A DNA stretch of 64,000 nt from Torpedo marmorata (Eukaryota). Below are positions 1 to 54,229 of this stretch, one piece after another (the stretch's first letter is position 1; the number at the start of each line of letters is the position of its first letter). The notes beneath the pieces are model-generated. The model was not told the DNA's origin. It made no database searches and saw only the letters and a list, made by a program, of their open reading frames with translations. The position numbers and the translations under genes were made by a program. The stretch is taken from NCBI GenBank assembly GCA_977017645.1, contig OZ360222.1, positions 248,186,001 to 248,250,000 of the forward strand, given 5' to 3'.

Positions 1-691
1 ACAGGCCTTTGACCAGCTTCAGGAAATCAAATAAATTCTCAAATGTTCTTTCTTCTCGGCCAGTTGCTGCAGGCAGTTTGTATGCATTGCGTTTGCAAAA
101 GCTTTCAATTTATTTTCAGAAGAAAGGAACATGATTGCATATTGCACCTGACTGAATTTCTCAGCTACGAACCAAAGCTCTTCACATTTAATGAATTGCT
201 TTGAAATGTGCAGATTGTTGTGTAGGCAACAATTTTTTTGGATGCAGGCCGAGTTGTCTGAATAATTAAAATATCTCCTTCTGTATTCAGCTCAACTTTC
301 ACATTGAAGCGCGACTTACCTTCAGATCTGGTGGTGAAGGTTTTAAACAAGTCCACGGAGCAGAGCTCCATGTCATTCTTGCGACCATTTACTTCACAAG
401 CTGACTTTCTAATTCCAAATGGGACCAGAAATAATTTTGTTATGCTTTTAGTTATTTTAATTAGCAATGAGATTAGTGAAGATTACTGCCAGTAGATAAA
501 AATCAGTGTAATTAAAATGACATGAAGACTAATGTTTCCATAATTTAGAAGATATCAGAAACAGTTTTAAAGCTGAATATTGCTTAAAATATCTACCATT
601 TATTCCTTGTGATCAGTCAATAAACAGTCTAAAATTAGTACAGTGTTTTTAGAAATGATTACTGCCGATTCGATTCTCAGAATGAACCTTA

Positions 692-954
692 AGTTTAAAA
701 TTTAAATCTAGACATACAGCACGGTAACAGGCCATTTCGGCCCACGAGTCCGTGCCGCCCAATTTACACCCAATTAACCTACATCCCCGGTATGTTTTGA
801 ACGGTGGGAGAAAACCGGAAACCCCGGGGAAAACCCATGCAGACACGGGGAGAACGTACAAACTCCTTACAGACAGCGCGGGATTCGAACCCCGGTCCCG
901 ATCGCTGGCACTGTAAAGGTGTTGCGCTAACCGCTACGCCAACTGTGCCGCCCC
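692..954 (-). mobile_element. tRNA-derived V-SINE (HE1-like)
   Basis: Reverse complement shows A-box-like TGGCGTAGCGGTTAGC, B-box GGTTCGAATCC, central V-domain GTCTGTAAGGAGTTTGTACGTTCTCCCCGTG and an AT-rich tail; many near-identical copies in the window. Confidence 0.9.
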
Positions 955-1203
955 AGAGCATTATTTGTAACAGGTACTGGAGATACAGTGTACAAGCAGA
1001 CTATAGATTCATAGAGGCATACGGCAGAGTTGACCATTGTACTTACCTACACTGGTCCCTTTTACCCACAATTGGTCCATAGCCTTCTGTGGTAACTCAA
1101 GTGCTTCTCTAAATGCTTATCAAAAAGCCTATAGAAATGTAAAAAGGAAAAGGTTAGCAAAAGTTAATGTAGGAACATTACAAAGCGAGACAGGAGGAAT
1201 TAT

Positions 1204-1566
1204 AAGATTTCAAGATTCAATTTATTGTCATAGTAATAAAACAGTGTCATATTACATGAAATTTCTTTTTGCCTTCTGCAAGGCAGACAGATTCGCCACC
1301 GGCAGAAATTGCCTAAGCGCCTCTAACATTCCTTACAGTCAGAGAAAGAGAAACAAAAGAGAGTCCTCCCAGAGTCACCATAGATTCGCCTCCAGCGCTT
1401 CCGCAGCCTCCACAGCCACACAGAGTCCAGTCCAAACCATCAGAAACCCGAGCTCCAGATCCGAACCTCCGACACGGTCAGGAACCATTCGGCGCCCTCG
1501 GCAACTCCTCGCATCCCGGTTCCGATACCTGGTACTCCTCCAGCCAGTTCGAGCCAGTCTCCAGAT
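1204..1566 (-). mobile_element. Non-autonomous LINE-tail repeat fragment (same family as 58085-58740)
   Basis: CAAGATT tail repeats plus TTTATTGTCAT; clearly similar to 58085-58450. Confidence 0.65.
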
Positions 1567-1589
1567 ACTTAAATAAATATTGCATATCT

Positions 1590-2170
1590 CTCTTCACAGG
1601 AGAAGTCACAAAAAAATAGCCGTGAAGTAGTGGAGAACAGGTCTAAAGTCAATGAGGAGCAGATAGAAATTAGCATCAGGAAAGAAAATGTATTTGGGGA
1701 AATTAATAGGACTGAAAGCTGTCAAATCCACAGGACCTGGTGTCCAAGTCGTTGATAGTGATGACAATGGCGGCAGAGGGTGTATTGATTGCCATATTCC
1801 AAAATTCCATAGATTCTAGAATGGCTCCCGCAGATTGCAAATGTAACCCCACTCCGCAGGAAAAGAGGGAGAGAGAAAATGGGAAACTACAAAACAGTTA
1901 GCCTGATGATTCCTGGAGGAAATGCTGGGATCTTATTATGGAAGTGGTAACAGGACTGGATTGGGCAGAGCCCACATGGATCTTTGACAGAATATTGAGG
2001 ATGTGTCCAGCAGTGTGTATTAGGAGTTGAAGATGGTGCCACATGTGGTTAGTCACAAACTTGTGGGGCATGGGATTGAGGAAATAATACCGATATGGAG
2101 AGAAAGAAGAGAATAGGAAAAAAGGAGTAATTTTTGAGTTGAAAGCTGCAACTAGTCGGGTGTTGCAGGG
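1590..2170 (+). mobile_element. Degraded CR1 LINE fragment
   Basis: Decayed CR1 ORF2-like sequence (GLKAxKSxGP, FQNSIDS, GNYxxVSL motifs) with deletions. Confidence 0.55.
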
Positions 2171-2174
2171 GTGG

Positions 2175-2750
2175 GTAAAAACACACAGTAAATACTGGAG
2201 GAACTCAACCGGTCTCACAGCGTCCATAGGAGGTAAAAATATATTACTGACGTTTTGGGTCTTGGCCCTTCTTCAAGGCATAAGCAAAAAGCAGGCAGAC
2301 GTCTCAATAAAGACTGAGAGAGAAAGGTGGGAGGGGGAGGAGTCGACCAACAAACAAAAGGTGTTATTTGGATATGATAAGAGGAGAAGTGAGAATTACT
2401 TTTGGATCTGTGAAAGGAGAGAGAGAGAGAGAGAGAGAGAGAGAACTAGAGGAAAGGAGACAGGGGGACAAAGATAGGGGGCAGTTTTTAATGGAAACCA
2501 GAGGTCAATGCTAATGCCATCTGGTTGGGGGGGGGGTCTAGACTTCTCCCCCTCCCATTCTTCAACCTTTCAGTCTTTATTGAGACACCTTCCTGATTTT
2601 TGCTTATACCTTGAAGAAAAGCTCAGGCCCAAAACATAGGTAATATATCTTCTCCTCGTATGGACGTTGCGAGACCGGCTGAGTTCCTCCAGCATTTACT
2701 ATATGTTTTTACTACAATCACAGTGTCTGCAGACCTCCGTGTTTCACTCT
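2175..2750. mobile_element. Inverted pair of Penelope-like terminal-repeat fragments
   Basis: ~2175-2340 is the reverse complement of ~2560-2715; both resemble the 3' region of the Penelope copies (GCTGAGTTCCTCCAGCATTT). Confidence 0.6.
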
Positions 2751-3638
2751 GTTGCAGGGATAAGTGCTCAGATTCCAGCAAAAATCCTATGGGGCATGAC
2801 AGGATGTCTAGAACAAGGAGTCACAATCTCAAAATAAGGGGAAGACTGCTCAGGGCTAAGATAAGCATAAATGTCTTCACCCAGAGCGTGGTGAATGTGG
2901 AATACACTCACAAAGAGGGCTTTTGGATATTAAGAGAATCTAGAGATATGGGGTTAGTGCTGCGAAGTGCTGCTGTGGTAAAAGATTGGCTATCCTTATT
3001 CTTATAATTTACAGTGATTATTAAAATAAGCATCTAATGATCCATGACAATGCAGGGAACCAGTCAGAATTCAAAGAATTACACATTGCAGGGAATTTTA
3101 GAAACCAGTCATGGGAGTCCAGATAACTAACTGCTTTATTAATTGAGGGCAGAGAGGAAATACAACGTATTCAAATGAACAAATTGCTCATCAGTTCCAC
3201 AGCTCTCTTTCTCTCCCCTTTCTTTTCCCTTTTCCCTTCCATCCCTCTCCGCTTCCTGCAATCTTCCTGAAAGGATTTATCTCTGGATTTCCATGGACAC
3301 AAGAGCCAAAAAAATACCCCCATCCTTTCCTCAAGGGAGTTCCAGATGTGCCGTTTTCCATTGGAGTAGCAATGATCATAGAATCACAGAAAATTTAATG
3401 TAGAGGCAACCATTCAGCCCACAATGTCCATGCCAGCCCTCTAACAGCAACATTCTAATTCTACTTGCCTGCCCTTTTATTGCAGCTTTGGACTTTTTTT
3501 CTCCACCATATATTCATTTAATGACCCCTTGATAACCACAAAGGCTATCAATCTCCCCATTTTCCACATTCTGACCACACGCTACCTAAAAAAAAGTATA
3601 TCCTCACATTACTTTTAATTCTCTTCCCCTTTATTCTT

Positions 3639-6543
3639 TTGAATATTTCATTTTTTCATTTTCAAAGTTCACAATATAAACAGGAAATATACGATTCACA
3701 ACTATATACAACATTATCATTAAACTTTCCCTCCCTCCCCCAACTGAAAAAATAAGTAAAAGGTACAAAAGAAAAGAAATAAAATGAAAAACTAAACGTA
3801 CCGTCAGTGCTTACATTGATTTTTCAATCTTTTTGGAGGCGCCACACCGTTAAATATTTCTACGCTATATTGTATTGTACCCCAATATACTCCAGGTATG
3901 GTTGCCACACCTTTACAAATGTACCGTATCTATTCCTGAGATTATATGTAATTTTCTCCATAGGAATACAGCTGTGCATTTCTGTTGACCACCGAGTGAT
4001 TTGAAGGGGGGAGTCGGACTTCCAAGTGACTGCAATACACTTTTTTGCTACGGACAAAGCAACTAGCACAAATTGAATTTGGAATTTGGATAATTTGTAG
4101 CTTATGTCCATTAAATTTCCCAGGAGATACAACTCCAGGTCCAGTGGAAAGGCCATCCCCGTAATTTTAGTTAGTGTATTAGATATATCATACCAAAAGG
4201 ATCGTACCTTTGCACAGGACCAAGTGGAGTGCAGGAAAGTTCCAACCTCCCCACCACATCTGAAACACAGTTCCGATATTTTGGATTTTGACCTGTGCAA
4301 CTTTTGTGGTGTGAGATATAGTTGGTGCAAGAAATTATATTGAACCAATCTATATCTAGCATTAATAACCGTCGTCATACTGTCCCTACACCAATCCGAC
4401 CAGCAACGCTCATGAATTGTTGTACCCAGGTCCGACTCCCACCTCTCCCTTGATCTATGTATACCCGGCTTAGGGCTTTCACTTTGGAGTACATAATATA
4501 TTCTGGATAAAATTTTGAATGCATTTCCCAGTCGAAGTAACTGTTCTACCTCATTGCTTATAGGTGGGGTCATTGCAGGACTCCACCTTTCTCGCAAGAA
4601 GGATCTTAATTGGAGAAAACAGTGAAAGGTTCTATTAGACAAATCATATTTATTTTTGAGTTGTTCAAAGGACATAAGCTGTCCCTTGTCGTAGCAGTCC
4701 TCAACATATCGAACACCCTTCTGATACCAAACGCTCCATATTTTATTACCCAAAATCATGGGTATAAACTCATTTTGAAATAGAGGTGTCTTGGTGGATA
4801 TTCCAACTTTTCCCCCAACACACTCATTGATTTCTTGCCAAATTTTAATCATATGTTTCAGAATAGGGTTGTTCGTTCTTTTGGATATTAACTTGGTGTT
4901 CCATTTGTAAATAAAATCCTTAGCTATTTTCGCCCCTATAGTATTCAGTCCAATTTGAACCCATGAAGGTGTATCACCCTCTTCAAAAAAGGACAAAAGA
5001 AACCTCGACTGGGCTGCTAAGTAATACTTCTTAAAATCTGGTAATCGCAAGTCCCCCAATTTATAATCCCACGTCAGCTTTTCCATGGAGACTCTCGAGA
5101 CTTTGCCATTCCAAATAAACTGTCTTACATATCCATTAAGTGTTTTGAAAAAGGTTTTTGGCAAACGAATAGGTAAAGATTGAAAAAGGTATTGCAGTTT
5201 CGGCATCACCATCATTTTGATACAGTTAACCCTGCTCACTAATGTGATGGGCAGGCTTCTCCATCTAAGTAAATCGTCCTCAATCTTTCCAAGCATCGGG
5301 AGGTAGTTGAGTTTATATAAATTCTGTAAATTATTATCAGTCCTTATCCCTAAATACTTAATGCCTTCCGGTTGCCATTTAAAGCAACTCCCTTGTTGAT
5401 GTTTTTTATAGTCAAATTTTGTCAGTGGCATGATTTCACTTTTATCTAAATTTATTTTATATCCTGAAATCATACTGTAATCCTCCAGTGTAGTCTGCAG
5501 TTTGGTTAAAGACTCAGCCGGGTCTGTTAGACATAACAATACATCGTCTGCAAACAAGTTTATCTTGTGATCCATCTGCTCCACCTTGAATTCTTTTATC
5601 TCTGGATCCCTCCTGACAGCCTCCGCCAACGGTTCAATCGCTAATACAAAGAGTCCTGGAGACAGTGGACAACCCTGCCTACTAGATCTATTCAATGAGA
5701 ATGTCGATGACATCTGTCCATTCGTTATAATTTTAGCCCGAAGGTTGTGGTAGTGTTTTTACCCATTAGACGAATGATTGTCCCAGTCCAAACTTTTCAA
5801 GTACTTTAAATAAAAAAGGCCACTCCAGCCTATCAAAAGCCTTTTCCGCATCTAAAGACACGGCTATGCCCGGGTCTATCTTGGATTGTGCCAAATGTAT
5901 AATACTAAATAATCTACCCAGGTTGTTGGCAGAGTGTCTCCTCTTCACGAAGCCGACTTGATCCGGATTTATCAATTTTGTTAGATAATAACTTAATCTA
6001 TGAGCTAATGCCTTAGCTATTATCTTATCATCAGCATTTAACTTATAATCAGGTCTATATGAAGATGGTTTTAGGGAATCTCTATCTTTCTTAGGTATAA
6101 CTGTAATAATAGCTGTTGAAAAGGATTCTGGAAGGGTCCGTGTCTCCGCTGCCTGATTAACCACATCCATAATAAGAGGCATCAAAAGTTCTTTGTAAAA
6201 CTCAGGCGGGAAACCGTCCTCCCCCGGCTTGTTAGCTTGTAATGTACTCAAGGCTTTTTCAATCTCCTCTCTAGAAAAAGGGGAATCTAATTTCATCTGG
6301 TCATCTTGATCCAATCTAGGCAGATCAATCTTGGACAAAAATTCATCTATTTTAGTTGAATCTTTAGGTGATTCTGATTTATATAGTTCTGTATAGAACT
6401 GCTTCAATGTGTCATTTATCTCTTTCGGGTTGTGTGTTATCTTATCTGGTCCTAACTGAATCGCATTAATTGTCCTCGATGTCTCTTCCGCCTTCAATTG
6501 CCAAGACAAGACCTTATGGACCCACTCGCCTAATTCATAATAT
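3639..6543 (-). mobile_element. L1-clade LINE, 5'-truncated, ORF2 (RT) disrupted
   Basis: ORFs 5766-6509 and 3860-5713 carry SLDAEKAFDR, RQGCPLSP, LFADD and a C-terminal CFRC..HSTWSC motif; 17-bp target-site duplication TCTTCCCCTTTATTCTT at 3622-3638 and 6544-6560. Confidence 0.93.
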
Positions 6544-45475: not shown

Positions 45476-47231
45476 GGGCCGTGTATCTTCTTAACCTTGT
45501 TATCTACCTGCATTGATCTTTGGACTTGCACACCACGGTTCCTATGTTCTTCAGTGCTCCCTGGGTCCTTACCATACATTCATTAGCTTCATTAGTACTT
45601 TTAAAATGCATTGCCTCACACTTACCTGGATTAAACCCCATCTGCCATTTCACAGCCCATTTCATCAACACACCAATATCACCCTGTTGCCTCAGACTAC
45701 CCTCCCCACTGTCAACAACTCCACCAATCTTAGTGTAACCTGAGAACTTTCAGATCATGCCTCCTCCATCCTAATAAAAATAATTCATCTATGTTACAAA
45801 CAACAGAGATCCCAGTGCTGACCCCTGCATCCAATGACAAAAACAATCCTCTACTATCTCTTTTTTCCAAGCCAAATTTGGATCCAATTTACCAACTTGC
45901 ATTAGATCCCAGGGGTTCTGACCTTATGGACCAATCTCCCACGTGGGGCCTTATCGAAGGCCTTACTGAATGAAGTCCATATCCAAAGTCAATTTCCTTC
46001 TAGCTCAATGCACAGATTGTCCCAATCTTGCCCTTAATAGGTCCCACCGTTTTCTTTTATCTTTAATATACATAAAAACTCTTTTGCCTTTACCTTATTC
46101 CTGTTTACCAGTGGTATTTCATTATTCCTCTCTACCTTCCTAACTTCATCTTTAAGCATCTCTTGATGTCAGATTAATGTCAGATACTTGACGAGCCTCC
46201 CCGTCTTTAACTTTTTCTACTTAGAACCTAGAACATAGAACACTACAACACAGTAAAGGCCCTTCGGCCCTCGATGTTGTGCCGATCCATATATCCCTAA
46301 AAAAAATTACTAAACCCACCCTACCCCATAACCCTCTATAAGTAACGGTGACTTCGCTCCACCAATAGTCACCTGGAGGCTAAGTGTGGTCCTTGCTTTT
46401 GACGCGTTTTATTTAATTTACTGACAAAGTCCAATATGTTCAAAAACCTTTATTTTCACACATGACTTGCAGTAATCTTCAATGACTTTAATATAAACAG
46501 TTCTTGTAAACGATGTATGATAAGTTCCTTTAAATTATTCCTTAAACAATTCCAAAACGATATGAAACACTGTAGATGATGTTAAAGTTATAGAAACATT
46601 ATAAAACGGTATAAAACGGTCAATAAAGATGTGGAGACCAGACTCACCCCCTATACATCTCTATCCTTTCTTTGTTCTCTCTCTCTAATGGTTCTGCGCA
46701 TGCTCCAACGCGCATACTACAATTCCCAGCCTCCCACGCGCACTATGACGTCACTCTATACTGCGCATGCGCCCGTCGGCACTCCCGCGCATGCGCATAT
46801 CAAAGAACGGGCCGACGACGGCCCACAGAACACAACGCAAGCGCTCCAAGGCCCGACGTGGCCTCGGAGCGCGCTGAGGACGGCCCAGTGAACAACGCGA
46901 GCGCTCAATGGCCCGACGTGGCCCAGGAGCGCTCCGAGGACGGCCCACCGAACCACGCGAGCGCTCCAAGGCCCGACGAGACATCGGAGCGCCGCAACAA
47001 CGGTAAGTTAACGAGCCTACGGCTCTTACACCGGCCCCTAATTATTATAATTAGACGTAATGTCTTGAATAATAATTACACTATAAATAATAATAACCAT
47101 AACATTCAAAACAATACAAATCTTCTTTCTTCCTTCTTCATAAATCTAGAGTTTACCATAACTCTGATTCAACAAAAGTCTGTAACCTGTGAAATGTACA
47201 ACAACAAATAAAGTCAGTTTACATTTATCAA

Positions 47232-47445
47232 AGTTCCTCTGTCTCCAACAAAAGGCAGACCTGGTTAATAGGTCTGCTTAGAAAACCAGTCTTAGCTTTA
47301 ATTCGCACTTGACGCACAAGTCCTCTTTGTCTTGAAAAGTCTCAATAATCTTTTCCAAGTAAACAGGAATTTCTTGAAGTTGAACCATCCATAACAATCA
47401 CAATGTCTCTTTAAAGTTCTTTTATCTTCACAATCCGAGTCAAAC
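47232..47445 (-). pseudogene. Degenerate BEL integrase C-terminal remnant
   Basis: Translates with frameshifts to DIVIVMD..RNS..LGK and GLVRQVRIKAKTGFLSRPINQVCLLLE, typical of the BEL/Pao Pol C-terminus. Confidence 0.75.
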
Positions 47446-47446
47446 G

Positions 47447-50400
47447 TCAACCAGTAAACCTCAAATCCTCCTCAGATAAAATAGATACAGTTTTTCTTTT
47501 GAATTTAACACAAGGCACTTCTTCAGCACGTCGTTTCACTTTATTCCTTTCTTCAGTATTCCACTTCTCATGTGAAGAATTTAAACTCTTAGAATTAGAA
47601 TTTGAATATTTATCTGATTCTCTCGACCTTAAACAGGTCTGTTTAACCACTCTGGTTTCTATGGCTCTTTCCTGTAATTCTAAATCCAATTTCGCAACTT
47701 TCAATTCAGTCTCAGCTCCTTCCGAGAAATTAATAATTTGATCTGAAGTCAAAATATCATGCGATACATTGATAATTCCATTGTCAATCCTGTTGCGGCA
47801 TACTTGAAATTTTTTAATTTCTTCATCTTGCTTGTTACATTTCTGCAATGCAATCTCACATTCTTTCTGCATTGTTAATTGTTGAACATTCAATTTACAT
47901 TCTTGATTGGTTTTAAAAGTCAACTGTTTTGTGTTATTAACCAATAACTTGATCTCTTTCAAAACATTAATCTCTTCCTCCAACCTTTTACATTTTGATA
48001 ATGCTGAATCTCTTTCCTCAATAACTGTATTCATTTCTTCAGCAGTTATTCTTTTCTTCCGCTTTCTGACTTTGCGAGTTTTACTTACAATTAAATCTTT
48101 CTGTTTACTGTTTTCTTGCTTATTTAATATTTCCAATTCTCCTTTCAACATTTTGTTCTCTGAATCATTATTCTTTACTCCATCAGCACAATTTTCTGTG
48201 TTTTCCATTTTTACATCACATTGCAATAATTCTTCATTAGCTTTGTCTATTGTAATCTCTGAACTACAAAATCTACATTCAGATTTGTTTTCAGTCACTT
48301 GTTTTATTCCTGTATTTGATTCAATTACACATGAATGATCAACAGTATTATTTGCAACATCTTCTAATACTTCACTTTCATCCATTTCTGACGAAATTAA
48401 TTTCTTTAATGTTGTTTTAAATACCACTGATTTATTTTCACATTGATCTGTTTTCTTTTCTTCATAAGTGATTTTCTTATTCACGGTTTTTTGCTCTTCT
48501 CTTAACTCTTCAAATTTCTCAACTGAAATTTTATTAACATTTATCGCTACCTGTTCCTGAGCAATATCATTATTTCTTTCCATTGGTCCATTGATTGCCC
48601 AACCAAGCATGGTTCTAATAGCGTAAGGTCCATTCCTTTTACTTTCTATTACTTCTTTTGGTACCAAAACCTTTGGCACATCTGAACCAATCAGCATTTC
48701 TATCTCAGAATTAATTTCAGGTAAATAAACCTTCCACAGATAAGCTAAATGATGGATATCACTTTGATGAGGAATATTTCCTTCGTTCACAGGCATAGTC
48801 TTCTGAGTATATACACTTGGAAGATCACAAAATTTTTTGTCATCCAATCCAGCAACCTCTAAGCCTGAAACAATGTTAGTTTCAACAACCTTTTCTTGTC
48901 CCATTGTTTTTAACATAATTCTTGATTTTCTTCCTTGAATATTAAGTTTATTCATTAGTCCTTCCGTGCAAAAAGATGCAGTGCTACCTGGGTCTAGAAA
49001 TGCATATGTTTTTACTATTGCATCCCCTTTCTTGGCCTTAACTTGTACAGGCACTATTGAAAGTTTGCAGTTATTCACCCCGGCCCCAGTAAGACCACTT
49101 GTCTGAACCGAGGTTATAACATTATTTTCTTTTGTTTCCTTTGTTTCTGTTTGCTCCTTTTCCAATTCCTTGTTTCTGTTACGGACATGCAAAATTCTAG
49201 GATGTTTAAAATTGCATATGTCACAATTAATTTGCTTCTCGCAGTTTTTACTGATGTGCCCTTTACACAGACAGCTAAAACATATTCCATTTTCCTTTAA
49301 GAAAGTGATCCTTTCTTTATGTTCCTTCCTTTCCAATTGTAAACACATTTCCAAAGCATGTCCACCTTTACAGAACAAACAACTCTTTTCATTAGGCAAA
49401 CTTTCCTTTTCCTTATTTATTTTGTCCTTTTCTTTACTTATAACTTGCACATTAGTAGCAAAAGTACTCCTTTTCACCTTCGGACTAGACTGTGAATTAG
49501 ACTTTCTTACATCTTTGCCCATTGAATTATCTCTGGTATTTCCATATAGTGGATCTGTTTCAACGTACACCCGTCGTTCAAGAAAATTTACCAAATCCTT
49601 TAAGGTAGTTTTTCGACCGTAATCTACTTGTAAATTACAAGCCAAATCTCTCCATCTATCCCATAACTTGTAAGGTAATTTTTCTAAGATAATTCGCATA
49701 TTACTATGCACTTCAAGCTCACGAATACCATCGATTTCTTCCATAGCATTACAACATCCTCTTAAAAACAAAGTATATTCTTGCAAAGCCTTTACATCAT
49801 TTTGTTTTATTGATGTCCATTTAAGAGCTTTATCCATATAAGCTAAAGCAATTCGATGTTTGTTGCCAAAATATTGTTCCAATAAATCCTTAGCTTTATC
49901 TAATCCTCTTCCTGAAGACATTTGATTACAACTTTTAACCAGTTCCTTTGGATGTCCCTTTGTGAACATTTCCAAATAATAAAGACATTCATCTCGATCT
50001 TGGCATTTATCTTCAATATTGCGTTTGAAAGATCTCATAAACGATTGATATTGAAGTGGATCACCATCAAAAGTTTGTATCTCTTTCTTGGGTAAAGAAG
50101 AGAGAGACTGTAACTGAAACAATGATGCAGCAATTTCATTTTGTCTTTCCTTGGATGACAATACATTGCTCTGTTCACCGTCTCTTGTTGTATGCAATGT
50201 ATCTGGAAACCTTACTGGTGTAGTTTCTTCCATATTTCTGATGCTTGGCTCATATAACAAAGAAGCTGCTTCGTTCGACCGTACCCAATCCGCAGCTTTG
50301 CTTTCAGATGTTATTATTGGTACATGTGACTTGATACCAATATGCTCTTGAAAGGTTTGTCCTTGTATACGTAAGTTTTGTATCCTTGGTTCTAAAATAT

Positions 50401-51388
50401 CTATCCTTTTGGTTGGTTTCTTTTCCTGTGACTCCTTTTTTGAATATGACCTTTTATTATCAGACAATTTAGATAATTTACTGCTAGCACCAGATACCAT
50501 TGAACCTTCTATTGCTTTCTTTTCTGCCTTGGCAATAGCAATGTTTGCTTCCAGCTCCTGCAGTTCTTTTCTCTGTCTTAGCTGCTCCTTCTCTTGTCTT
50601 AGCTGCTCCTTTAGCTGCTTCTCATTTTGTCTTAGCTGCTCCTTTAGCTGCTCCTCATTTTGTCTTAGCTGCTCCTCCTCTTGTCTTAGCTGCTCCTTCT
50701 TTTGTCTTAGCTGCTCCTTTAGCTGCTTCTCATTTTGTCTTAGCTGCTCCTTTAGCTGCTCCTCATTTTGTCTTAGCTGCTCCTCCTCTTGTTCTAATAT
50801 AAATTTATCCTTAAGCGTTTTTTGTTGTGCAAGAAGAGCGGCCAATTTAACATCAACCTTTGTACGTGACGATGCAGAACTTGAAGTACGAGAAACTCTG
50901 GAGCTTGAACCAGAACTTCTTTTGCTTCTCCTGCTTTCAGCATTTGAGACACTGTCACTTGCTTGTATTTCGTCCTGCAGTTCATATGTTGTCTTCATAC
51001 TTACCTCTTTATCCAATTCGAATTGTATATCCTTTGCATCTTCAACCAATTCAATTTCTTCCTCATTTGGTGACACAATTTCAGCCATTTCCAAGTTATC
51101 TTCTTGTTCAAATAATGAAGCTGCCTCTTCATCCTTTGCCTGCTTCAATCTTTCAATAAGAACCTTTTTATTTCCACTTATGTCCCTTTTCAGTCGCTTC
51201 AATTCTTCTTTAATATCCGCAACCTTCATGTCTTCAATACGTTGGTCCTCAACAGCAACATCAGCGGTTGCTGCGTCAGCTGCTGATAAATCAGTAGCTG
51301 CTGTATCAGTGGCTGCTGCGGCCATTTTACTCGTCTTGTTCCTCTTTCCTTCAAGCATACACAACACTAGCCAAACAACAGTCCCCAA
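47447..51388 (-). CDS. BEL SAP-Gag-protease fused to a MIPOL1-like coiled coil; no RT, RNaseH or integrase core
   Basis: SAP motif MKVADIKEELKRLKRDISGNKKVLIERL; Gag LPKKEIQTFDGDPLQY; three Cys-His knuckles; protease AFLDPGSTASF and GPYAIRTMLGWAINGP; likely start is the ATG at 51325. Confidence 0.9.
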   Translation of the reverse strand: MGTVVWLVLCMLEGKRNKTSKMAAAATDTAATDLSAADAATADVAVEDQRIEDMKVADIKEELKRLKRDISGNKKVLIERLKQAKDEEAASLFEQEDNLEMAEIVSPNEEEIELVEDAKDIQFELDKEVSMKTTYELQDEIQASDSVSNAESRRSKRSSGSSSRVSRTSSSASSRTKVDVKLAALLAQQKTLKDKFILEQEEEQLRQNEEQLKEQLRQNEKQLKEQLRQKKEQLRQEEEQLRQNEEQLKEQLRQNEKQLKEQLRQEKEQLRQRKELQELEANIAIAKAEKKAIEGSMVSGASSKLSKLSDNKRSYSKKESQEKKPTKRIDILEPRIQNLRIQGQTFQEHIGIKSHVPIITSESKAADWVRSNEAASLLYEPSIRNMEETTPVRFPDTLHTTRDGEQSNVLSSKERQNEIAASLFQLQSLSSLPKKEIQTFDGDPLQYQSFMRSFKRNIEDKCQDRDECLYYLEMFTKGHPKELVKSCNQMSSGRGLDKAKDLLEQYFGNKHRIALAYMDKALKWTSIKQNDVKALQEYTLFLRGCCNAMEEIDGIRELEVHSNMRIILEKLPYKLWDRWRDLACNLQVDYGRKTTLKDLVNFLERRVYVETDPLYGNTRDNSMGKDVRKSNSQSSPKVKRSTFATNVQVISKEKDKINKEKESLPNEKSCLFCKGGHALEMCLQLERKEHKERITFLKENGICFSCLCKGHISKNCEKQINCDICNFKHPRILHVRNRNKELEKEQTETKETKENNVITSVQTSGLTGAGVNNCKLSIVPVQVKAKKGDAIVKTYAFLDPGSTASFCTEGLMNKLNIQGRKSRIMLKTMGQEKVVETNIVSGLEVAGLDDKKFCDLPSVYTQKTMPVNEGNIPHQSDIHHLAYLWKVYLPEINSEIEMLIGSDVPKVLVPKEVIESKRNGPYAIRTMLGWAINGPMERNNDIAQEQVAINVNKISVEKFEELREEQKTVNKKITYEEKKTDQCENKSVVFKTTLKKLISSEMDESEVLEDVANNTVDHSCVIESNTGIKQVTENKSECRFCSSEITIDKANEELLQCDVKMENTENCADGVKNNDSENKMLKGELEILNKQENSKQKDLIVSKTRKVRKRKKRITAEEMNTVIEERDSALSKCKRLEEEINVLKEIKLLVNNTKQLTFKTNQECKLNVQQLTMQKECEIALQKCNKQDEEIKKFQVCRNRIDNGIINVSHDILTSDQIINFSEGAETELKVAKLDLELQERAIETRVVKQTCLRSRESDKYSNSNSKSLNSSHEKWNTEERNKVKRRAEEVPCVKFKRKTVSILSEEDLRFTG
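47640..48090 (-). other. MIPOL1: Captured host-gene fragment resembling MIPOL1
   Basis: RITAEEMNTVIEERDSALSKCKRLEEEI..NNTKQLT..NQE matches recalled MIPOL1 RITAEEMSALIEERDAALSKCKRLEQEL..NNMRHLT..NNQE; recognised from memory, not searched. Confidence 0.7.
50570..50790 (-). repeat. Coding tandem repeat (EQLRQ/EQLK units, 108-bp higher-order duplication) in BEL Gag
   Basis: Repeated TTGTCTTAGCTGCTCC units. Confidence 0.9.
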
Positions 51389-53469
51389 TGGACCAGCGGC
51401 AGCAATTCCAATCTGTGTTCTTACTTGCTAAAGATACACAGAAGGAGTCCACAGACTTATGCCTACCACTTCAAATGACTGTAATGTGCTGCAATCCTTA
51501 AACGAGTTTCAACCACAACATCCGTCACTAATATCACTGATTTTCAAAAAATAGTTTCTCCAACGTATTTATAGGACACTTTATTATAAGATTTGAAGCT
51601 TTAAATCACTCTCTGGCTGTTATTCATGGCAGATGGATGTAGATTACAAACTGCCCCCAACTCGAGGCATCTCCAAAATGGCCACCAATTTATATCAGCC
51701 CAAAGCACAGAGAGTTTTTTCTATCTTCTTTCCTTCAAACTTCTGTTCCAAACAGCCAGCCCTTTATTGACTATAAGTAACGGTGACTTCGCTCCACCAA
51801 TAGTCACCTGGAGGCTAAGTGTGGTCCTTGCTTTTGACGCGTTTTATTTAATTTACTGACAAAGTCCAATATGTTCAAAAACCTTTATTTTCACACATGA
51901 CTTGCAGTAATCTTCAATGACTTTAATATAAACAGTTCTTGTAAACGATGTATGATAAGTTCCTTTAAATTATTCCTTAAACAATTCCAAAACGATATGA
52001 AACACTGTAGATGATGTTAAAGTTATAGAAACATTATAAAACGGTATAAAACGGTCAATAAAGATGTGGAGACCAGACTCACCCCCATACATCTCTATCC
52101 TTTCTTTGTTCTCTCTCTCTAATGGTTCTGCGCATGCTCCAACGCGCATACTACAATTCCCAGCCTCCCACGCGCACTATGACGTCACTCTATACTGCGC
52201 ATGCGCCCGTCGGCACTCCCGCGCATGCGCATATCAAAGAACGGGCCGACGACGGCCCACAGAACAACGCAAGCGCTCCAAGGCCCGACGTGGCCTCGGA
52301 GCGCGCTGAGGACGGCCCAGTGAACAACGCGAGCGCTCAATGGCCCGACGTGGCCCAGGAGCGCTCCGAGGACGGCCCACCGAACCACGCGAGCGCTCCA
52401 AGGCCCGACGAGACATCGGAGCGCCGCAACAACGGTAAGTTAACGAGCCTACGGCTCTTACACCCTCTATTTTTATTTCATTCATGTGCCTGTCTAAGAG
52501 TCTCTTAAATGCCCCTAATGTTTCAGCCTCCACCACCGTCCCAGGCAAGGAATTCCAGGCACCCACAACTCTCTGTGTAAAAAACTTACCCCTGATGTCT
52601 CCCCTAAACTTCCCTCCTTAACTTTGTACAGATGTCCTCTGGTGTTTGCTATTCCTGCCCTGGGAATCGGCTTCCTTTTTTCCTCTTTATTGCATTTTCG
52701 ATATCTGTAGACATGCAGGGTTTCCTGCACCTGTAAGCCTGAACTTTCGCCCATATTGCAACATGTTGGCCCTGAACACTTATTATTTCTCCTTTCAGTG
52801 CTTCCCACTGTACAGATGCAGATTCAGCTACAATAGATGCTACCAGTCTACCTTTTCACCAGGTTCTGTCTTATTTAATGAAATTGGCCTTCCCCCAACT
52901 TGTCCTTTAATCCTGGTCTATGCTGATTTTGTTTTCCATATCCACTTTGAAATATATGGAGTTTTGGTCACGAGCTCCCCCGCTGACACTCCTTTTACCT
53001 GACCAGATTTTAGTTCCTAAAACAAGCTCAATCAAAAAGCCCTCTTGGATATACTTCAAAAACCCACCCCACTGAGCCCTTTATGTCAAGGTAGTCCCAG
53101 TTAACATGGAAACACCCCCCCTGTCCCCCAACTACAATAACCCTATTTTTTATCACATTGCTCTTCTATTTGACTGTACATCTGCTACTCTATCTCCTGT
53201 TGGCTGTTAGGAGGTGCATCATATACCCCCGGCAAAGTGGTGACACCCTAATCTCTACCCATATGACCTCATTTGAGGAGCCTTTGGAATATCCTCCTTC
53301 AATACTGGTGATGCAACCTTAGACTAACAATGCAATGCCATTTCCTGTTTTACACCCCTGTGTTTCATCTGACATTTCTGTATCCAGGATACTGAGTAGC
53401 CAGTCCTGCCTGTCTCAGTGATGGCAACAGTATTGTAGTTACCCATGTTCATTAAAGCTTTGAGCTCAC

Positions 53470-54229
53470 TGTTGTGTTGAGAAGAGTATCAGGTTTGGTG
53501 AGTTCACCGAGAGACGAGTCTGGACACAAGTGTTACAATCACACATAACTTTTATTAACACACGGGAAACAAACAGGGGAGAACGTTAAATGGTACACTA
53601 TTGCTAATTCACGTAAGCGACGATATAGACATTCACCTTGGACATCAGTTGGACTCCGACAACGGTAAACCTATATTCAACCCAATTCACACACTACACA
53701 CACTGTTTCACTTGAGCGACGATATAGACGTTGACCTCGGACATCAGTTGGACTCCGACAACGGTAAACCTATATTCGACCCTGCTCACATACTATAAAC
53801 AGGGACTCTTACACACGCTCCCGGTTCCCTGATCAATGGAGATGTGGCTCCACTGCAAATATTGATCTATCGCAATACTACGGCTCAGCTTCAGTGTAGT
53901 GAACACCTTACCCGCGACCCTTCCAGCGACGTCCACAGTAGCGACCTGGCATGGAGTGGTGTCCGGGGCTTGGACAACGAGGCAGAGAGAGAGAATGTGC
54001 TGTGGGTTGGTATTATATACAGTGCTAATCTGTGCTTCTAGCCAATAATGACCCTAGGTGATTTAAAGTAGCCAACGGCAAGATGTGCACTAATGGGCGG
54101 CCGGAGTCCAACCTTGATTGACAGGTGATGTGACTTCCGAATAAGTTCCAGATGGGGAGGACACGTGACCACCCGCAATCCACAATATTCCAGACAGGCA
54201 GGGAGGCCACGTTTCCTCCACACACAACA
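53470..54229 (-). mobile_element. Retroviral-type LTR (3' LTR of an ERV-like element) with an internal ~100-bp tandem duplication
   Basis: Inverted ends TGTTGTGT..ACACAACA; preceded on the minus strand by PPT GAGGGGTGGAA; AATAAA on the minus strand near 53555; duplicated block at ~53617 and ~53717. Confidence 0.75.

Follow-up and report, generated by a model that had tools for sequence, protein, structure and literature searches.

How can a retrotransposon that has lost its own enzymes come to carry host coding sequence in their place, and how does such a frame stay open? The question is raised by a BEL/Pao LTR element with a single open frame at 46337–52462, on the minus strand of the window, i.e., the whole 64,000-nt stretch analysed here, which lies on contig C11 of the 6.2 Gb assembly of the ray Torpedo marmorata. 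Overall, we consider it probable that the element belongs, as a young member, to a non-autonomous BEL/Pao family of high copy number in which pieces of BRCA1, exon-scrambled MIPOL1 and Elongin A (ELOA) replace RT, RNaseH and integrase, with capture likely by template switching, mobilisation likely by a helper, and the frame under selection.

The window element, its helper and its copies

The earlier note on this DNA had described near-identical LTRs, a perfect target-site duplication and an uninterrupted ORF, and all three are confirmed (Table 1). The LTRs, 694 and 691 bp long, differ by no mismatches and three gap bases, CCCTC is present on both flanks, and the frame is open over 47447–51427, giving 1326 aa from stop to stop; the length of 1313 aa reported earlier is obtained by counting from a Leu codon. 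A Pfam scan of the window ORF detected a SAP domain and a weak aspartyl protease (E 0.086) and no RT, RNaseH or integrase core, as the note had also stated. The ORF plan of autonomous BEL/Pao elements, Gag-PR-RT-RNaseH(PF05380)-IN-DUF5641, is absent from the window element and present in the helper described below. The element is thus a non-autonomous BEL/Pao derivative. Its integrase tail, correctly recognised earlier as broken, lies behind the stop codon, and its frameshifts (47047–47409) are common to young copies.

Table 1. Features of the BEL/Pao element and its flanks (window positions).
Feature	Position	Strand	Basis
Target-site duplication CCCTC, left	46332..46336		sequence
3' LTR, 694 bp, TG...TA on element strand	46337..47030	-	LTR comparison
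Polypurine-tract region, common to helper	47031..47046	-	helper comparison
Helper-like integrase tail and 3' UTR, behind stop	47047..47409	-	~95% identity to helper
Single ORF Gag-PR-cassette, 1303 aa from first ATG (51358), open to 51427	47447..51358	-	ORF list
ELOA-derived piece: two host exons, intervening exon deleted	47450..47632	-	78–84% nt to host exons (C41)
MIPOL1 exon C-derived piece	47637..47719	-	host exon alignment
MIPOL1 exon B-derived piece (5' half), downstream of exon G	47720..47792	-	putative back-splice junction between 47793 and 47792
Spliced MIPOL1 piece: exon E in part, then F and G; RITAEEM inside	47793..48098	-	host exon alignment
BRCA1-derived piece: two host exons, spliced	48100..48495	-	host exon alignment
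Aspartic protease (LDPG)	48578..49075	-	Pfam and helper comparison
Gag zinc knuckles	49178..49381	-	sequence
Gag core (DUF1759 region in helper)	49529..50092	-	97–100% nt to helper
SAP domain, Gag N-terminus, present in helper too	51137..51238	-	Pfam
5' LTR, 691 bp	51772..52462	-	LTR comparison
Target-site duplication CCCTC, right	52463..52467		sequence

Some details of the backbone are recorded here as observations. Helper Gag and satellite Gag alike begin with the SAP domain, which is of a nucleic-acid-binding kind. The LTR ends in TA instead of CA (window 51772–51790), in three helpers (L134, L138 and L140) it ends 6 nt earlier than in the others, and what follows the 5' LTR lacks the initial TGG usual for a primer site. 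Within Gag (50541–50822), tandem repeats with units of 12, 21 and 33 nt keep the frame and encode an EQLRQ coiled coil whose length differs between copies, as does the number of GC-rich 60-bp tandem units in the LTRs (46832–47032 and 52204–52464). Two 95-nt direct repeats, 87% alike, lie just outside the element at 53608–53801.

The autonomous partner that the earlier note had envisaged is present in the genome, intact and as young as the satellite. A search with PF05380 over the genome gave 6,618 first-look candidates, of which 150 were scored and 10 fetched in full. Seven of these ten contain ORFs of 2018–2134 aa and share the LTR start, the post-LTR sequence and the polypurine tract with the window element; the helper LTRs are 98.6–98.8% identical to the window LTR, no MIPOL1 was found in the fetched full-length copies, and the one helper ORF scanned holds the full BEL domain set, including RT, RNaseH and integrase. 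The window element tracks the helper over element bases 1–3972 and 5054–6126, with 1,081 bases in place of about 3,190, and nucleotide identity in the protease falls from 96–100% in its 5' and middle part to about 82% in the last interval before the cassette. Because the satellite is without enzymes and its cis ends are common to the helper, it is likely mobilised by helper Pol acting in trans.

The structure is far from single-copy. An exact 20-mer of the cassette occurs 14,859 times in the genome, at dispersed sites, and a helper 20-mer, likewise exact, 838 times (0 for the controls). This corresponds to at least about 15,000 satellite copies, outnumbering the helper about 18 to 1 by single 20-mers, a ratio to be read alongside the numerous older RT-bearing BEL families (6,618 first-look candidates). 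Another cassette 20-mer, with 9,232 occurrences, gives a partial count, being absent from most of the youngest copies. Outside the window, 750 kb of sampled sequence contained five cassette copies, four of them in the MIPOL1 region and the fifth in 200 kb of evenly placed stretches; scaled to the genome, the five give about 41,000 copies (Poisson 13,000–97,000). LTR pairs are 99.3–100% identical in 15 of 16 young satellite copies, eight of them having identical LTRs, and 88–92% identical in the five of 19 older copies for which pairs were recovered. The satellite has therefore multiplied recently at dispersed sites.

In three public runs labelled as other organisms, sequence related to the cassette was likewise present in 30 of 30 bins. 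Coverage was 30/30 bins in run X6, whose type (RNA) is a guess and which is not taken as a sign of transcription, and 6/30 bins in run X16; none of the runs listed is recorded as RNA. Among annotated proteins, no match to the full-length fusion was found in 4,951 candidates of 716–2281 aa, and none of 103 matches in a representative protein library had a best stretch of BRCA1 plus MIPOL1. When 100 of these 103 were tested for permuted MIPOL1 parts, none was found in the 62 proteins holding both parts.

Three host genes and a non-colinear junction

The earlier note had likened the coiled-coil-rich region behind the protease to MIPOL1. In a protein search, the last 371 aa of the ORF matched MIPOL1 of many vertebrates, the best being Pristis MIPOL1 (E 9.7e-29), and among the 120 matches listed of 190, those named by source were all MIPOL1 save three with uninformative or odd labels. 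Generic coiled-coil similarity is ruled out because the cassette has nucleotide identity to host exons. The likeness to MIPOL1 is accordingly upheld for about 155 residues, but the rest of the cassette of about 350 residues belongs to BRCA1 and Elongin A. The stretch upstream of MIPOL1 gave BRCA1 in six of six matches (best Narcine, E 1e-55), with the window's own stretch matching BRCA1 at E 2e-37, and the stretch downstream of MIPOL1 in older copies matched human Elongin A (E 2e-47; Pfam PF06881).

When the element was compared with the host loci (BRCA1 on C61, ELOA on C41), older copies were found to hold up to four BRCA1 and five ELOA exons, spliced and colinear, at 89–98% nucleotide identity to the host; the window's BRCA1 and ELOA pieces are eroded, at 73–86%. 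All three host pieces are in frame with Gag-PR, and the intron-less host exons occupy the place of the internal coding sequence (RT-RNaseH-integrase). A second, split Elongin-A-like locus (C25:175318134–175337048), probably a paralog, does not match the cassette exons and was rejected as a source. Precise skipping of the lost ELOA exon was also ruled out, as the deletion lies between short direct repeats.

The proposal of a captured host mRNA fragment holds in that the sequence is host-derived and spliced, the MIPOL1 exons mapping against the host exons as joined pieces; it has to be amended in that three genes are involved and that MIPOL1 is not colinear. A genome search with the Pristis MIPOL1 protein gave 49,865 first-look candidates, and most of the 77 scored matches present residues ~340–470 of MIPOL1 followed by residues ~210–300. 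In the host gene, for which 350 kb of contig C40 were fetched and exons mapped, AG/GT borders delimit exons B, C, D, E, F and G, which together with a 34-nt exon amount to 780 nt, or 260 codons. In the cassette, by contrast with this order, exons E-F-G come first and B-C follow. All 29 older element loci compared, which are the best matches to host MIPOL1 protein and hence the least diverged, present exon E, starting at about nt 48, and then F, G and B; the window retains E-F-G-B-C. In the ten copies viewed at single-base resolution, exon G runs to its final base and exon B follows from its first, with nothing in between, and an exact 22-mer spanning this junction occurs 178 times in the genome (control, 0). 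Four cassette-bearing copies of different ages lie inside introns of host MIPOL1 itself (C40:64.29–64.65 Mb; L062–L096).

What identifies a circRNA-derived copy, according to Dong et al. (2016, PMC4897178), is a non-colinear back-splice junction, and the flush G-to-B junction bears this signature. We consider it likely that the MIPOL1 template was a circular RNA. The same junction could have come from a linear transcript, through exon repetition or trans-splicing, or from a tandem duplication of exons B–G that has since been lost, and because the captured arc of about 585 nt is shorter than one full 780-nt circle, a linear RNA with repeated exons stays compatible with it; our literature search also found no paper on circMIPOL1. 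Such an origin nevertheless seems unlikely. Each exon is single in the 350 kb of the host locus, element copies aside, and no sequence from outside exons B–G was captured, exons A and H having no match in the 60 element sequences searched (32 rows listed). Furthermore, the introns flanking exons B–G are long, 50 and 62 kb, and long flanking introns are typical of circular RNAs. An RT jump on linear MIPOL1 mRNA, landing by chance on two exon borders that share an AG, is very improbable. AG is indeed common to the exon ends, and short apparent homologies occur at some of the other switch points of the element, but exons B–G hold 85 AG dinucleotides, so that chance landing on this donor and this acceptor together is not to be expected, and all four gene-to-gene switch points lie inside exons. 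A circular template therefore remains our preferred reading of the junction.

At these switch points, about 2 nt of apparent homology were seen at BRCA1-MIPOL1 and a near-match at ELOA-IN; MIPOL1 and ELOA are joined through a 19-nt linker whose source is uncertain. All 20 loci picked by ELOA alone stop at nt 61–63 of one ELOA exon, and 19 of the 20 have MIPOL1 upstream; this common end and common neighbour show that the cassette has a single origin. One older subfamily (L153, L158, L159 and L160) has about 50 extra RT-start codons and two extra BRCA1 exons, with one further ELOA exon in several of its copies, and the extra codons and exons suggest that it stands closer to the original capture. 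Host BRCA1 is 82% identical to that of Narcine, 67% to that of Pristis, 63% to that of a skate and 52% to that of a shark. As for the date, in one BRCA1 exon older copies have 0 of 14 Narcine-derived residues and 0 of 8 host-only residues, from which we infer that capture probably took place near the split of the T. marmorata lineage from Narcine.

Backbone exchange and the open frame

In a tree of one BRCA1 exon, older copies stand beside the host exon and the later ones branch off stepwise, the window's subfamily being the last step. In the protease and Gag trees, young satellites fall among young helpers, apart from older satellites. A single protease clade for all 29 cassette bearers was rejected (p-AU 1.07e-5) in a test on 52 rows, three of them lacking the protease region, with presence of the cassette as the criterion for the group. 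When the window is compared with older copies, synonymous divergence amounts to 0.5–1.3 in Gag/PR and 0.29–0.44 in the cassette. The cassette has therefore moved between BEL backbones, by recombination onto a newer LTR-Gag-PR backbone.

The earlier note had set a stop-free host segment against a frameshifted integrase remnant, and this observation is well founded. Over 322 hand-limited codons aligned to host exons, at about 20% divergence, the cassette has no stops where 10.4 are expected, and 0 of 5000 shuffles were stop-free; in the integrase remnant, which is only about 5% diverged from the helper, copies have +1 and -1 shifts in common. Fixed deletions in the cassette (3, 24, 24, 120, 3, 81 and 111 nt) keep the frame in seven of seven cases, and an eighth (-201 nt) is in frame relative to one older copy only. 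Single older copies often have +/-1 shifts, e.g., 6 of 16 in one 99-nt interval. The aligned cassette is without stop or shift in 27 of 29 young copies, which, like the window, were chosen by likeness to the intact ORF, a choice that favours openness. Four intermediate copies found regardless of ORF have private breaks only, and no shared stop was found among the young or intermediate copies examined.

The residues themselves have a different record. Cassette dN/dS is 0.67 (bootstrap 0.46–1.04) vs. 0.71 with the same substitutions shuffled, so a value well below neutral, as for a functional retrogene, was not obtained; Gag and PR have dN/dS of 0.15–0.42. Because amino-acid changes are slightly below the shuffled number (117 vs. 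126, P=0.04; ELOA part, P=0.05), weak protein constraint may act on the cassette. The absence of stops, the in-frame deletions and the near-neutral dN/dS together indicate that selection keeps the frame open while residues are barely constrained. The earlier idea that the segment was kept as a Gag-PR fusion is therefore right as to the in-frame fusion and a frame under selection, but does not extend to the amino acids, which drift near neutral.

Neutral drift of the amino acids would also fit a cassette that is a neutral passenger, its open frame reflecting only the choice of an intact copy. We regard this as quite improbable given that no stop is shared among young or intermediate copies, that fixed deletions are in frame although single older copies often carry shifts, and that frameshifts did become fixed in the tail behind the stop. 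A need for the tail as protein is a possible, if doubtful, reason for the open frame; the tail would then serve either as a long charged coiled-coil spacer for co-assembly of Gag-PR-tail with helper Gag-Pol or for interference with host partners. The slight deficit of amino-acid changes is in keeping with this, as is the better preservation of the MIPOL1 exon E block (95 of 106 nt vs. a cassette average of about 80%). However, cassette dN/dS is at the neutral expectation, unlike that of Gag/PR, the BRCA1 RING and BRCT domains were never captured in the element copies compared with the host, and the Elongin A core is lost from young copies. We favour, at roughly even chances, the reading that the cassette is a translated filler that keeps the stop near the 3' end of the RNA and so avoids long-3'-UTR decay, and this is the weakest step of the mechanism. 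NMD acts on long 3' UTRs, and the distance from stop to 3' LTR is about 205 nt in the helper and 417 nt in the window, and would be about 1,460 nt if the ORF ended after the protease.

In the history that we propose, RT template switching inside a particle would have captured host RNA pieces, as in the model for LTR-mediated retrocopies in the main text of Tan et al. (2016, PMC5131818), with the MIPOL1 piece likely copied from a back-spliced circular RNA. One capture would have joined, in this order, the BEL RT start, BRCA1, the MIPOL1 arc, ELOA and the integrase end. The cassette would later have shrunk from about 2 kb to 1.1 kb through in-frame deletions, and recombination would have carried it onto the LTR-Gag-PR backbone of the current helper. 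An intact helper with the same LTR likely mobilises the satellite, whose amino acids would drift as selection held the frame open almost as far as the 3' LTR. A more tentative proposal, to which we give slightly less than an even chance, is that a circular RNA and pieces of BRCA1 and ELOA mRNA gave a chimera that became a major ray repeat family because host coding sequence is the stop-free filler that single-ORF BEL satellites need, and that it has survived since near the Narcine split by hopping between helper backbones.

Relation to known systems

Soybean SNARE and SARE are reportedly non-autonomous and autonomous LTR partners that swap LTRs. Like such partnerships, the ray satellite would track the LTR of its helper by recombination; unlike them, the ray family exchanges LTR, Gag and PR around a host-derived cassette.

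In the main text of Tan et al. (2016, PMC5131818), maize Bs1 is described as an LTR element with partial exons of three unlinked host genes and switch points common to all copies. The ray element likewise has three host genes in one LTR element with shared switch points. By contrast, Bs1 has 1–5 copies and one piece out of frame, whereas the ray family has at least about 15,000 copies and all pieces in frame, and is an animal BEL/Pao element with one non-colinear junction. According to the same text, 14 of 21 older LTR-mediated retrocopies have loss-of-function changes, and one mosquito LTR-mediated retrocopy is flanked by a BEL element. The ray family resembles such retrocopies in the replacement of the internal ORF by mRNA pieces, the several parent genes, secondary retroposition and, perhaps, short homologies at switch points; it differs from these single- or few-copy cases in being long-lived, in outnumbering its helper and in a frame that is open at 20% divergence. 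The string "circ" is absent from that main text.

Non-colinear junctions in genomic copies have been described for mouse circRFWD2-derived pseudogenes, 33 of them high-confidence, with the mechanism left open (Dong et al. 2016, PMC4897178). These pseudogenes, like the ray copies, have a back-splice junction, LTR sequence in their flanks and no poly(A). In the ray, however, the junction is part of a defined LTR element that has a helper; it stands in a presumably translated frame and exists in thousands of copies. In addition, a recent preprint places MIPOL1 first among retrocopy parent genes in cartilaginous fishes and reads these as ordinary retrocopies (bioRxiv 10.64898/2026.06.26.734816); circRNA, BRCA1 and ELOA are absent from its main text, and the ray BEL satellite family may be what it counted as MIPOL1 retrocopies. 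Each ingredient thus has a precedent (Bs1, LTR-mediated retrocopies, circRFWD2 pseudogenes), and the combination is new as far as our literature search goes, which found no description of the ray family or of its combination of features and outside which most subscription papers lie.

The element would be a fossil of an ancient back-splice event and would show in concrete terms how circRNA can be retroposed, a point that Dong et al. did not settle. It indicates that what begins as LTR-mediated gene capture can grow into a family with tens of thousands of copies and not just a few retrocopies, and it offers a natural test case in which translation would be selected for and protein sequence would not. 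Read-mapping and retrocopy counts for BRCA1, MIPOL1 and ELOA in these rays are confounded by the element, which probably accounts for MIPOL1 topping the recent cartilaginous-fish retrocopy list.
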